Source of the DNA: Eledone cirrhosa
Lineage: Eukaryota
Direction: 5' to 3'
Length of the DNA stretch: 64,000 nucleotides
Assembly: GCA_964016885.1 (NCBI GenBank)
Contig: OZ024754.1
Span: 42,842,001 to 42,906,000 of the forward strand
The stretch's first letter is position 1, and the number at the start of each line of letters is the position of its first letter. The notes beneath the pieces were generated by a model. It saw nothing but the letters and a program-made list of their open reading frames with translations. It did no database searches and was not told where the DNA came from. Shown piece by piece: positions 4,514 to 60,664 of this stretch. Made by a program: the position numbers and the translations under genes.

Positions 4514-4571
4514 ATACCTGATGATGTCACCGGATTCATACTGAACCCGGTCATTGAAATGATCATAGTAT
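4514..4571 (+). ncRNA. Minimal type-I hammerhead ribozyme (helix-III palindrome TGATCA) within insert 4407-4620
   Basis: ATAC-CTGATGA(4518)-stem II accgg/ccggt-GAAA(4556)-TGATCA-TA^GTAT. Stem I is ATAC/GTAT. AATAAA follows at 4572. Confidence 0.8.
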
Positions 4572-4825
4572 AATAAACCTTTCAAGGATTTACACCAGTC
4601 CAGCCTCCTGTTATTTTATTATATATATATATATATATATATATATATATATATATATATATATATATATATATATATACACATACATATATATATATAT
4701 ATACATATATATATATATATATATATATATATATATATATATATATATATATATATATATATATATATATATATATATATATATATAAGAAGAAATTAAA
4801 AGATGGTTAAAAAAGTTCCATATAC

Positions 4826-4889
4826 TTTATTATGCGCATTTCGAAAACAACATCACCCTGGGACAAAAATTGTGTTCTCATCAGATAAA
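4826..4889 (-). ncRNA. Minimal type-I hammerhead ribozyme (palindrome TGCGCA) within insert 4787-4925
   Basis: Reverse complement: TTTAT-CTGATGA-gaacac…gttttc-GAAA-TGCGCA-TA^ATAAA, with a 5-bp stem I. Confidence 0.82.
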
Positions 4890-4975
4890 ATAAGGTAACA
4901 TTATATGAGGCATAAAAACATATATAATATATATATATATATATATATATATATATATATATATATATATATATA

Positions 4976-5180
4976 TTTAATATAGAAATGGGTTCTACAG
5001 GACTAGAACTGTTTTATTCGAGAGAAATCATCAGGAAGCTCTGATGATTTCTGATGATTTCTCCCGAATGAAACAGTTCTAGTACTGTAGAAGCCTTTTC
5101 TATATTAAATATTTATACTCTGCTATTTATTGAGTACCTTACTCACTGTGGTTACCCCCGATTGAACCCGGGACAAACTT
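4976..5180 (+). mobile_element. PLE family B fold-back insertion carrying hammerheads on both strands
   Basis: Inverted arms 4976-5035 and 5051-5107. Plus strand: CTGATGA(5051)…GAAA(5070)-CAGTTCTAGTACTG-TA^GAAG. Confidence 0.8.
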
Positions 5181-5194
5181 ATATATATATATAT

Positions 5195-5385
5195 AATAAC
5201 TGTTTCTATTTTAGGCACAAGGCCATCAATTACCCAGTACATTACTGGTACTTTATTTTATCGACCCCGTAAGGATGAAAGGCAAAGTTAACCTCGGCGG
5301 GATTTGAACTCAGTCCGTAAAGGGACTTAACTATGCTGCAAAGCATGGCGTCCGACCCTCTACGGATACTGCCATTCACCGCCCC
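5195..5385 (-). mobile_element. tRNA-derived SINE (main window family)
   Basis: Reverse complement has A-box-like TGGCAGTATCCG, B box GTTCAAATCC, conserved body TTTGCCTTTCATCCTTACGGGGTCGATAAA and an (ATT)n tail. Confidence 0.85.
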
Positions 5386-5492
5386 TATATATATATATAT
5401 ATAATAACATCATCTGATGTTATGTTTGATTCCATATAAAATAGGAAGACCAACGGACCCCAAAAACATAACATTGTGTTCCAGTTCCACCA

Positions 5493-56284: not shown

Positions 56285-56775
56285 GACCAGTGCTACGGCA
56301 CATTGGGCAAGACACAGACCTAGGTGGGCCTGGTCTTGTGGCCTTCTATGGCACATTGGGCAAGACACAGGCCTAGGTGGTCCTGGCCTTGTGGCCTGCT
56401 ATGGCACGTTGGTCAAGACACAGACCTAGGTGGTCCTGGCCTTGTGGACTTCTACGGCACATTGGTCAAGACACAGACCTAGGTGGTCCTGGCCTTGTGA
56501 CCTGCTATGGCACATTGGTCAAGACACAGGCCTAGGTGGTCCTGGTATTGTGGCCTGCTATGGCACGTTGGTCAAGAGCTAGGCCTAGGTGGTCCTGGCT
56601 TTGTGGTCGGTGCTACGACACGTTGGTGAAGACCCAGAACTGGGTGCTCTTGGCCTTGTGGTCAGTGCTATGACACGTTGGTCCAGAGCCAGCCTAGGTG
56701 GTCCTGGTCTTGTGACCAGTGCTATGACCTGTCGGTCAAGACCTAGGACTAGGTGGTCCTAACCTTGTGACTAGT
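56285..56775. repeat. 53-bp GC-rich minisatellite, about 9 diverging copies
   Basis: Unit TGCTATGGCACATTGGTCAAGACACAGACCTAGGTGGTCCTGGCCTTGTGGCC. Confidence 0.92.
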
Positions 56776-57394
56776 GCAACTGAAGGCAAGAGAATCCAAG
56801 ACCATAGCGGTAACAGAACTTAAGTTCAAGAGCGTGTGATCGAACAAAAAGACACGACTGTCCCAAGCGAGTGTAAGTGAGAAAAGGACTGCTAGAAGGT
56901 CAGGCGAGGGAAACAATGAGGTAGCTGACAGAGAGAGGGTGAGTGAAAGTGAAAGGGAGAAAGAGAGAGGAAAAAAGAGGGGGAAGAGTAGATAGTAACG
57001 AAATAGGTAGGCAGAGAGAGAAGACGGGTCACAGCAAAACATGATAAAATGTATCGAGAATAAGATGGCTGCGTAGTTGCTAGTTAAGGTAGGCTTAATG
57101 GAATGAGAATAAGGAGAAAGCATATATATATATATATATATATATATATATATGAGATACCCGTTTAAACACCCGTTATCAAGGGAGTAACCTTCAAAAT
57201 TTAAATTTGTGTCTCCTATTAAACAATGATTCAAGCAAACTACAGACCTCTGATATATATATATATATATATATATATATATATATATATATATATATAT
57301 ATATATATATATATATGGAATGTAGGAAAGTGACAGACGAGTTGATATATATAAACAAATAGTAAAAAGGAAAAAAACATTACAACTAAATACG

Positions 57395-57459
57395 TGTCTG
57401 GTGAAAACATCAAATAATTGATACACAACGGCTTCGATGTCTTTGAAATGTACATAACA
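57395..57459 (+). ncRNA. Hammerhead-like motif (palindrome TGTACA; core variant CTGGTGA)
   Basis: TGT-CTGGTGA(57398)-aaacatc…gatgtct-GAAA(57445)-TGTACA-TA^ACA. Confidence 0.62.
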
Positions 57460-58392
57460 GGTTGATGGATTAAACTAAAGATGTATATTTAATACCGTCT
57501 CTCTTCTGTTTTAAATTATTGACACTCTGCCAATATAAGTAATACCCTATGTTACCCACGCCATGGAGTTCTTAAGTCTCATCCTATGGCTGGGTGATTG
57601 CTTGAGCAATCAACACTGATTACATAGAATTATACACACAGAAACACGCACACACACACACATATACACACATATACACATATACATACGCACACACATA
57701 CACACATGTGTGTCATACACACACATACACACGAGTGTCATACACACGAACACGCATACAAACACTTATATATGTATATGTATACGTATATATATATATG
57801 TATATATTTATATATAAACACATATACATGTATACACATGTATACACATCTTGCTAAACAAATTCAGAAACGAAACATATATATATACTTATATATATAT
57901 ATATGTATATGTATATATATATATACATATATGCATATATATATATATATACATATATGCATATATATATATATATATATACATATATGCATATATATAT
58001 ATATATATACATATATGCATATATATATGCATATATATATATATATATATATGCATATATATGCATATATATATATATATATATATATATATATATATAT
58101 ATATATATATATATATATATATATATATATATATATATATATATATATGCATATATATATATATATATGCATATATGCATATATATATATATATATATAT
58201 ATATATATATACACATACACACACGTATATATCCGTACACACACACACACACAAATACATATATATATACTGTATATATATATATATATATATATACACT
58301 GCCACTGTGATTTTTACCGTTTACTGTTTAGTTTTCATTTTCTGTGTTACCTGATAGTGTTGTTGTATTTCCTCATATTATTGGTCTTTTAC

Positions 58393-58884
58393 AGTTGTTG
58401 TTGTTGTTGTGGTGGTGGTGGTGGTGGTGGTGGTGGTGTTGGTGTTGGTGGTGGTGGTGGTGGTGGTGTTGGTGGTGGTGGTGGTGTTATTGGTGGTGAT
58501 GGTGGTGGTGGTGGTTGTGTTGGTGGTGGTGGTGGTGTTGGTGGTGGTGTTGGTGGTGTTGTTGGTGTTGGTGTTGGTGGTGGTGGTATTGTTGGTGGTG
58601 GTGTTGGTGCTGGTGGTGGTGTTGGTGGTGGTGGTGGTGTTGGTGGTGTTGTTGGTGGTGATGGTGGTGGTGGTTGTGTTGGTGGTGGTATTGTTGGTGG
58701 TGGTGCTGGTGGTGGTGTTGGTGGTTTTGGTGGTGGTGGTGGTGTTGGTGGTGTTGTTGGTGGTGATGGTGGTGGTGGTGGTTGTGTTGGTGGTGGTATT
58801 AGTGGTGGTGGTGGTGCTGGTGCTGGTGCTGGTGTTGGTGGTGGTGGTGGTGTTGGTGGTGGTGGTGGTGGTTGTGTTGGTGTT
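58393..58884. repeat. (GGT/GTT)n triplet microsatellite
   Basis: Direct inspection. Confidence 0.95.
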
Positions 58885-60217
58885 AGACATTTTTACTGAT
58901 TCTTTCCGGTGCTTTTTTGTCTCTGCCGTCTTATAGCACCATCATCACCATCACCACATCCACTACTCCCCCACCACTCCCACTACTATTATTCTCACTT
59001 CTCCCACCACCACCACCACCACCACCACCACCACCACCACCAATTTACTTTATAATTCTTAAATGGATTCACGAAACATTTATAGGTCATCACATCTTGT
59101 CATATTGCTAGACCTCTCTCTCTGTCTCTCTCTCTCATCTCTCCCCCTCTCTCACTCACTCTCTCTGCTCCCTCTCTCTCACGATATATATATATATATA
59201 TAAATATATATATATATATATACATATATAAATGTATGTATGTATACAGATACGTATATACATATGTTTGTGTGTATGTATATATATATATATGTGTATA
59301 TATATATATACACATGCATACATATATATATATACATATATATATATGTATATATATATATATAATCTCATTTCTAGCTGACCATTTTCAGGACACCACA
59401 TCAACCAAACTCCAATGTTTATACCCCACCACTGCACCCCACTCTTCATACAAACTTGTATAGTTCATCTCTTTATATATATATATATATATATATATAT
59501 GGTTGAGGAGGTGGTTGGGGAGGCGGAGGAGGAGGGTAGCTGTGTTGAACGTGGGTGAGTGTGGAGAAGGAGAAGGTGGAGGAGGATAACTGAATGACCA
59601 TCTCGAGATTTGCCACAAACCTCTTGAAATAATCTAGAGAGCAATTGTAACGTTTGTTTTGGAAGATTGTTGTGGTTTCCAATCTCCGAGAGAGAGAGAG
59701 AGAGCGAGAGAGAGAGAGAGAGAGAGAGAGAGAGAGAGAGAGAGAGAGAGAGAGAGGAAGAGAGAGAGAGAGAGAGGGAGAGAGAGAGAGAGATACAGAG
59801 CTATATATATAATTAGATAGATAGATAGATAGATATATAGATATATAGAGAGATAAAGAGAGAAATAGATAGATAGATAGATAGATAGATAGAGAGAGAG
59901 AGAGAGAGATGTGGGAGGCGGTGAAATGAAGAGGTGGAGAGACAATATTTGGAATTCCTAATTTCAGAATAGATTGAGCCAGAAAAGTTCTTTCACAGAA
60001 ATAAATGTTTACAATCAGAACCTAGACCCCCCCCCCCTCACCAACATGTAAACAAATGATCCGAAAAGAATTGTGTTGTTTATATATATATATATATATA
60101 TATATATATATATATATATATATATATATATTTATATATATATATATATATATATATATATATATATATATATATATTTATATATATATTTATATATATA
60201 TATATATATATATATTT

Positions 60218-60664
60218 ATACATGCAAAGTTATATTTAAAATTGTTGGGTTACAACTAGTAAATATTTATAACTGATATAAAAGCACTCGACAAATACTT
60301 GGAGTATATTTACAATATTAAATAAATGGAAAACTATATTTATAAAACCATATTTATTTCATTATATATATTTCGGGGATATCATATTAACAATATGCTA
60401 TGCCTTCATCAGACAAAATACAATATAAACAGTTTTATAGATAAATATATTCGACATACCGTAATAAACATCAACTTAGAGTGAACCTCTTCAAATGAAG
60501 TTGATGTTTATTACGGTATGTCGAATATATTTATCTATAAAACTGTTTATATTGTATTTTGTCTGATGAAGGCATAGCATATTGTTAATATGATATCCCC
60601 GAAATATATATAATGAAATAAATATGGTTTTATAAATATAGTTTTCCATTTATTTAATATTGTA
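60218..60664 (-). mobile_element. PLE-like fold-back insertion with hammerhead (palindrome TATATA) on both strands
   Basis: Inverted arms of about 165 bp (60312-60477 and 60498-60664). TTGT-CTGATGA(60563)…GAAA(60601)-TATATA-TA^ATGA, then AATAAA. Confidence 0.8.

Follow-up and report, generated by a model that had tools for sequence, protein, structure and literature searches.

The window considered here, a stretch of 64,000 nucleotides from Eledone cirrhosa (assembly GCA_964016885.1, contig OZ024754.1, positions 42,842,001 to 42,906,000 of the forward strand), holds many hammerhead ribozyme-like motifs of type I, in which a short segment, helix III, lies between GAAA and a U-H triplet. The question it raises is whether the palindromes found in that segment constitute a code by which each family of elements would recognize its own RNA, as an earlier note on this DNA had proposed. 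The window is microsatellite-rich animal DNA without a long coding frame, from an assembly of 3.0 Gb. The analysis leads to a different reading which, taken as a whole, we hold to be highly probable: the motifs would be truncated 3′ ends of many families of Penelope-like elements (PLEs), their helix III would be self-complementary because two copies must pair in order to cleave, and the palindrome would drift with ancestry instead of being selected as a family code.

Self-complementarity of helix III

The nine strings named in the earlier note are all present, three of them on the minus strand, and each sits between GAAA and the U-H triplet of a type I hammerhead-like motif. Their palindromy stands in part: TGATCA, TGCGCA, CCGG, CGCGCG, TGTACA and TATATA (six of nine) are perfect, CGATTG and CTTGAG are self-pairing but only through two G.U pairs, and CGACCG (22367), given as a palindrome, does not self-pair.

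Taken alone the bare motif is weak, with 7 palindromic sites among the 146 GAAA-N6-T-H sites of the window. A palindrome-blind scan requiring core, helix II and helix I was applied to 138 evenly spaced 10-kb stretches (1.38 Mb): among its 78 matches 31 segments are perfect palindromes, 36 have one mismatch or an odd centre, 9 depart further and 2 are too short, while the same scan on ten locally shuffled copies of the sample gave 117 matches, none of them perfect and 5 with one mismatch. Compensatory change across families, which the earlier note had suggested looking for, is found as well. For the 8-nt segments of 16 families it can be read from the two inner pairs, which are impossible within a single monomer: 29 of the 32 cells are paired (23 of 26 with duplicates removed), with five pair types at each inner position, against an average of 16.9 in column shuffles, of which not one in 50,000 comes up to 29. 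The inner pairs of 6-nt segments are paired in 17 of 18 cases. These covariation statistics run over related families and are descriptive. The short palindromes are real parts of the hammerhead motifs, and their self-complementarity is far above chance.

The majority form within each family was read from copies selected by similarity to the window copy, which biases it toward the letters of the window. It is ATGATCAT for the 4560 family (20 of 24 anchor matches, the other 4 being spurious), ATGCGCAT for 4833 (12/12 copies), ACCGGT for 12981, ACGCGCGT for 23993 (15/22) and ATGTGCAT for 57449 (5/10, the window form ATGTACAT occurring in 1/10), and the 49 copies of the 60605 family divide into ATATATAT (27), ATATGTAT (16) and ATACGTAT (1). 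The earlier note had taken CGATCG and CTCGAG as the true forms behind 9640 and 34327; in fact ACGATCGT is absent from all 21 copies of the former, of which 17 have ACGATTGT, and ACTCGAGT appears once in the latter, whose majority is ACTTGAGT (14/23). Decay of CpG as the origin of CGATTG, CTTGAG and TGTGCA was considered and rejected, as the T form is the majority and the CG form is absent or single; for 9640 the T form is found in copies 98–99% identical, themselves selected by likeness to the window copy. The 22367 family has A and C at two central positions in 10/10 copies, and in most of the ten U3 is paired with G8 and no helix I adjoins the core, which makes it a weak hammerhead.

Some core changes and likenesses were observed alongside. 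The 34327 family (core 34360-34367, minus strand) has CTGAATGA, with one extra base, and CTGAAGA cores in similar numbers, and in the abundant 10646 family (10646-10710, 28502-28518; locus L168) the core of the other copies reads CAGAAGA, with A in place of U4. Sequence blocks are common to the long helix II of 9640 (9580-9635) and that of 23993 (23940-23985), and the two families look related despite differing palindromes (ACGATTGT, ACGCGCGT) and helix I, which, judging from sequence, would represent a double change within one lineage.

Probable pairing of two copies

That short-helix hammerheads are activated as dimers, as the earlier note held, is supported by the covariation at pairs impossible in a monomer and by folding, since none of seven short-helix motifs is predicted to fold into the active form as a monomer; it has also already been published. 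For segments of 6–12 nt, forcing helix III to close within a monomer is predicted to require +0.4 to +6 kcal/mol, while the families with long hairpins are predicted to close it alone, at -1.4 to -7.1 kcal/mol. In a model with enforced pairs the dimer is favored over two monomers in their active form in all 12 cases. In the published work, hammerheads with a short palindromic helix III cleave poorly alone and better as dimers, mostly in tandem (PMC4209133, PMC6765202, PMC7229834, PMC6466107, and the legend of fig. S8 in PMC3088659). The motifs likely function in pairs.

The sequence of events that we infer would begin with a transcript running through two terminal repeats or tandem units, and therefore carrying two identical hammerheads. 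The helix III segments of both copies would pair antiparallel, and each core would cut the strand of the other copy. As the GAAA of one copy and the U-H of the other share a core in this swapped dimer, helix I would also form between the copies. Two identical strands that pair antiparallel must be palindromic, so that the palindromy needs no further explanation. The palindrome could then shift slowly via G.U intermediates that pair with both the old and the new forms, and a family could in this way drift between palindromes without a barrier, whereas families with a longer helix III hairpin could relax the palindrome rule. Solo or opposite-strand copies such as those of the window have no same-strand partner, and are likely inactive stubs.

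It might instead be supposed that the hammerheads work mainly as protein-assisted monomers or have a non-cleaving role, the palindromes being a remnant or serving some other pairing. The low in vitro activity of minimal PLE hammerheads (PMC4209133), the changes fixed in the cores of abundant families (GCAA for GAAA, CAGAAGA and the 8-nt core) and the long hairpins able to close helix III by themselves would agree with this, but the covariation at pairs that a monomer cannot form, the conserved core with its U3-A8 compensation and the published enhancement by dimers (PMC6765202, PMC7229834) do not, and we regard it as very unlikely.

Palindromes shared among families

A wider scan, covering random stretches, search loci and the window (about 1.96 Mb in all, or about 0.07% of the genome), gave 424 matches, from which 35 families were retained, several of them resting on one or two copies. 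Clusters 0, 7, 24 and 36 (single-locus, satellite-like), 26, 32 and 34 (doubtful structure), 22 (no majority) and most singletons were excluded before counting; the 22367 family also stands outside the 35 and was added only for the inner-pair covariation analysis. According to their majority segments, 20 families have Watson-Crick palindromes, 6 self-pair with G.U and 9 do not self-pair, so that the non-palindromic consensus segments which the earlier note had named as an argument against its own proposal occur in 9/35 families. The two commonest complete motifs of the random sample are both of this last kind: a 17-nt plain-loop hairpin (the 10646 family, 19 matches) and AGAACT (17 matches), the latter kept in 27/35 copies of its family and following endonucleases that are 53–64% identical.

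Nor does each family have a near-unique palindrome, for the earlier note had omitted from the window a second ACCGGT family (8986-9125, 61376) and the non-palindromic one (10646-10710, 28502). ACCGGT is found in three co-resident families, two of them in the window, whose proteins are 55, 55 and 70% identical over ~290 residues and which form one group, moderately supported (91/89, 82 columns). The palindrome would accordingly seem, on sequence comparison, to mark old lineages and to change more slowly than the protein, outlasting 30–45% protein divergence.

The idea of a selected code, in which only a family's own RNA would activate its ribozyme, can be set against these counts. In its favor, the 26 self-pairing families use 20 different sequences and 582 of the 595 family pairs are unable to pair fully. 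A code would nevertheless lead one to expect a deficit of shared palindromes, and no test gives one: identical pairs among the 26 number 8, above and not below the 3.2 expected of random palindromes (8 or more in 1.8% of draws) and the 4.7 of a column shuffle (8 or more in 1.9%), and G.U-compatible pairs number 12 against 9.8 under the column shuffle, an excess that is not significant. Moreover, 14/35 families have another family with which they are compatible, 9/35 cannot self-pair, ACCGGT has been kept across 55% protein identity, and the heterodimer of ATGCGCAT with ATGTGCAT is predicted at -8.6 kcal/mol, stronger than the -6.0 of the ATGTGCAT family's homodimer. The palindrome as a self/non-self code is, in our judgment, highly improbable.

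The second ACCGGT family (8986-9125, 61353-61381; L245, L222, L235) is young, and carries GCAA for GAAA (A13 to C) together with a U3-A8 core, in nearly all of its copies and in 27/27 of its cluster, in a scan that accepted GAAA and GCAA alike. Either this is a tolerated variant of the core or the family spreads without a working ribozyme.

Hammerhead copies in the window

The type I core (CUGANGA ... GAAA ... UH, with helices I–III and ends in helix I) is present at 4560, 4833, 9640, 12981 (U3-A8), 23993, 47782 and 60605 and in family B copies. At 57449 it is found in the family copies, the window core being damaged, and 34327 is a type I hammerhead with a 1-nt insertion in the core. Many of the window copies are fold-back pairs on opposite strands adjoining (TA)n. 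In the 4560 family, 26 matches, counting the window copy, show no difference from the 111-base query along its full length. The copies are the following:

4514..4571 (+): type I hammerhead of a young family, helix III ATGATCAT at 4559-4566
4825..4890 (-): type I hammerhead, helix III ATGCGCAT at 4832-4839, helix I TTTTAT/ATAAAR
4325..4372 (-): family B hammerhead with a 16-nt helix III and CTAG centre
4997-5012 (-), 5051-5094 (+), 13177-13214 (-), 13229-13272 (+): further family B copies
8980..9131 (both strands): fold-back pair of the second ACCGGT family, core TTGAAAA, GCAA replacing GAAA
61353-61381 (+): third copy of the second ACCGGT family (GCAA)
9561..9653 (+): type I hammerhead, helix III ACGATTGT, with two G.U pairs in the dimer
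10646..10710 (both strands): fold-back 3′ halves of the family with a non-palindromic 17-nt helix III hairpin, core absent here
28502-28518 (+): another 3′ half of the 10646 family
10868..10954 (both strands): helix III hairpins of family A (loop GAGCTC), folding back ahead of the core
1654, 28574, 28628, 28886, 33897, 54619: other family A hairpins
12266..12517 (-): decayed PLE-type GIY-YIG endonuclease fragment, unlinked to a hammerhead here, with at least 150 scored matches in the genome
12953..12990 (+): U3-A8 hammerhead, helix III ACCGGT (12981 family)
34018-34055 (+): second window copy of the 12981 ACCGGT family
22360..22405 (-): old, weakly supported hammerhead, non-palindromic segment ACGACCGT
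23778..24003 (both strands): back-to-back hammerhead pair with ACGCGCGT, cores at 23851 (-) and 23922 (+)
34320..34372 (-): hammerhead whose core, CTGAATGA, has 8 nt, helix III ACTTGAGT, fold-back plus arm without core
47700..47787 (-): U3-A8 hammerhead with the 10-nt palindrome ACTACGTAGT, absent from the earlier note
57393..57461 (+): old hammerhead, damaged core CTGGTGA, window segment ATGTACAT, family majority ATGTGCAT
60357..60618 (both strands): back-to-back hammerhead pair with ATATATAT, cores at 60412 (-) and 60563 (+), the family also having ATATGTAT

The repeats of the window include no retrozyme-like array, in which hammerhead-bearing units a few hundred bases long would follow one another head to tail, and a Pfam search with the 12266-12517 fragment alone gave no match. 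An Rfam search of the window gave no family at gathering score, and the 150 best of its 778 E-value matches, a list filled by simple repeats, include no hammerhead; the PLE-type hammerhead class is defined in print through a descriptor, and not through Rfam.

Two further observations concern other parts of the window. A short interspersed repeat without hammerhead is present in many copies (5175-5410, 19674-19899, 32225-32414, 32744-33027, 39820-39889, 50607-50794, 52684-53063, 60734-60953). A frame at 13938-14723 is broken by a 38-bp minisatellite, and its first part may resemble a mariner transposase.

Families A and B

In families A and B, both with a longer helix III, the loops claimed by the earlier note hold well: CTAG in family B has each position kept in 46/47 copies and GAGCTC in family A is kept in 91/104, although the whole helix III of neither is perfectly palindromic. 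A link of family B to the L245 endonuclease was dropped, as the 9120 family lies nearer and recurs in that group. In family A, GAGCTC stays the same in three subfamilies whose loops differ at three flanking bases, and the hairpin is predicted at -7.1 kcal/mol, stable enough alone, with a loop that can partly close on itself. The full core (TTGAGAA) was found only outside the window, with 3 complete motifs against ~100 helix III copies. Family A copies (e.g., 10936-10954) nearly always start inside helix II, without the 5′ core, and this suggests a preferred point of truncation. By analogy the hairpin resembles the kissing hairpins of retroviruses, such as the dimerization initiation site (DIS) of HIV-1, with its loop of 2+6+1, and family A would be the best remaining lead for discrimination.

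Relation to Penelope-like elements

The link to PLEs is clearest for the 12981 family. A full element of it lies at locus L230, where a frame of 938 codons matches RVT_1 (E 2e-6, slightly below the curated cut-off) and GIY-YIG (above the cut-off) and is flanked by direct repeats of ~1,070 bp, 97.8% identical, each holding the 12957 hammerhead. Its protein consists of a reverse transcriptase (RT) followed by a C-terminal GIY-YIG, with a DKG motif and a CX4CxxC linker. A first look at the genome gives more than 10,000 GIY-YIG candidates, and the 150 that were scored all exceed the cut-off. In four endonuclease groups a hammerhead lies 0.3–1.5 kb downstream of GIY-YIG in 14/17, 11/15, 10/11 and 7/7 matches, the 11/15 group being that of the second ACCGGT (9120) family; the fuzzy signatures of the two ACCGGT families cross-match in this survey, and they were assigned from the sequences themselves. 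A motif in this position was found for the 12981, 9120 and 47782 (1/3 matches) families and for one locus of the 10646 family (L168). For most families the derivation from PLE 3′ ends would follow from their design and context. Same-strand hammerhead partners are present in full or tandem copies (L230, L245, L248, L063), and retrozyme-like tandem hammerhead units of 311, ~467 and ~459 bp were observed at L248:176-1927, L063 and L231:6509-7418, respectively. Two GIY-YIG groups (L185-L198, L246-L248 and L170-L187), which include relatives of the window fragment 12266-12517, have none of the listed hammerheads within ~1.5 kb downstream; their hammerhead may lie further off or differ.

Drift or selected discrimination

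Several results weigh against the reading of paired, drifting PLE ends. The survey downstream of GIY-YIG gave no endonuclease link for the 4560, 4833, 9640, 22367, 23993, 34327, 57449, A and B families, and one loose match for 60605, while two endonuclease groups (13 and 8 matches) lack any listed hammerhead within ~1.5 kb downstream. The energy of the enforced-pair dimer beats the best free fold of the monomer in just 7/12 cases, and PLE hammerheads have shown little activity in vitro, dimers included (PMC4209133). Finally, some real specificity is predicted, for full pairing of helix III is possible in only 13/595 family pairs, just 1 of those 13 has at least 4 helix I pairs at both cores, and the three ACCGGT families differ in their helix I arms, with cross-pairing of 3/2, 1/1 and 1/1 bp.

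These last facts would favor a lock composed of both helices, in which helix I and helix III together choose the partner, dimers form between separate RNAs, and selection has acted on the faster-changing helix I so as to separate families that share a genome. Strand connectivity and the enforced-pair model agree that helix I must form between the partners in a swapped dimer, and the constancy of the family A GAGCTC loop in three subfamilies with variable flanking bases points the same way. Against such a lock, families sharing helix III also share helix I above chance (at least 3 helix I pairs at one core in 8/13 against 2.2 expected, at both in 3/13 against 0.5), as is expected from common descent and not from avoidance, and the published gains from dimers came from tandem constructs (PMC4209133, PMC7229834). 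We consider a selected lock of this kind unlikely, and equally doubtful the extended proposal that PLE hammerheads pair between separate RNAs, with helices I and III as a two-part lock against cross-cutting, and that in family A a kissing GAGCTC hairpin would let cleavage sense the concentration of its own RNA.

Drift under a pairing rule, as proposed above, would account for the same specificity. Most cross-family pairs would still fail, because helix I is also formed between the partners of a swapped dimer, and such passive incompatibility is expected from drift without selection; most families are thus likely incompatible with one another as a by-product. As it stands the finding is an ordinary one, a published ribozyme design in a PLE-rich genome. 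Of use beyond it are the ~35 hammerhead variants themselves, a natural set for which compatible and incompatible partners are predicted, so that pairing within a transcript and pairing between RNAs can be tested directly against each other. Should separate RNAs prove to pair, and discrimination among them to be selected, this would mean RNA-only kin recognition and a concentration sensor in retrotransposons, as well as a source of mutually independent ribozyme switches.

Comparison with known systems

That helix III is palindromic, that one genome holds many families and that cleavage takes place in dimers is already in print. Minimal hammerheads with a short palindromic helix III are carried by the pseudo-long terminal repeats of metazoan PLEs (Cervera and De la Peña, 2014; PMC4209133), and, as here, they have a type I topology, palindromic positions 15.2–16.2 plus loop 3, the U3-A8 core variant, compensatory changes among the numerous sequence families of a genome, and mostly solo or opposite-strand truncated copies, with few full elements holding a motif in each repeat. 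The PLE hammerheads of Lünse, Weinberg and Breaker are likewise described in reviews (PMC6765202, PMC6466107) as having a very short palindromic stem III and cleaving as dimers with a tandem partner. In contrast with what is set out in PMC4209133, the segments of Eledone cirrhosa range in length from 4 to 19 nt, some being non-palindromic hairpins, and its families are new examples; the accessible portions of that paper also contain no test of palindrome sharing between families such as the one made here. Literature searches, in a collection with limited coverage of subscription papers and supplements, brought up no article describing a family code or a kissing loop for the hammerheads of PLEs.

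The L230 element is like the Neptune/Nematis-type PLEs (Craig et al., 2021; PMC8557442) in its RT with C-terminal GIY-YIG, DKG and CX4CxxC, and the inverted 5′-truncated copies and microsatellite insertion are also as in those elements; unlike the Hydra clade in the same paper, it lacks DKT and CxCX5C, having DKG and CX4CxxC instead. It would therefore fit the Neptune/Nematis type and not Hydra, the clade being judged from the motifs of this one protein.

The double hammerheads of the avocado sunblotch viroid and of the newt and axolotl retrozymes (PMC7229834, PMC6466107) have merged stems III and are active in tandem RNA, as is proposed here. The 311-bp and ~460-bp tandem units elsewhere in the genome are like retrozymes, whereas the window copies are dispersed PLE ends. 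Family A, for its part, shares with the HIV-1 DIS (PMC5874298) a hairpin with a conserved 6-nt palindromic loop, in a layout that would go from kissing to extended duplex, although only as an analogy: the DIS requires flanking purines (PMC5874298), while family A has mostly pyrimidines there and a loop that can partly self-close.

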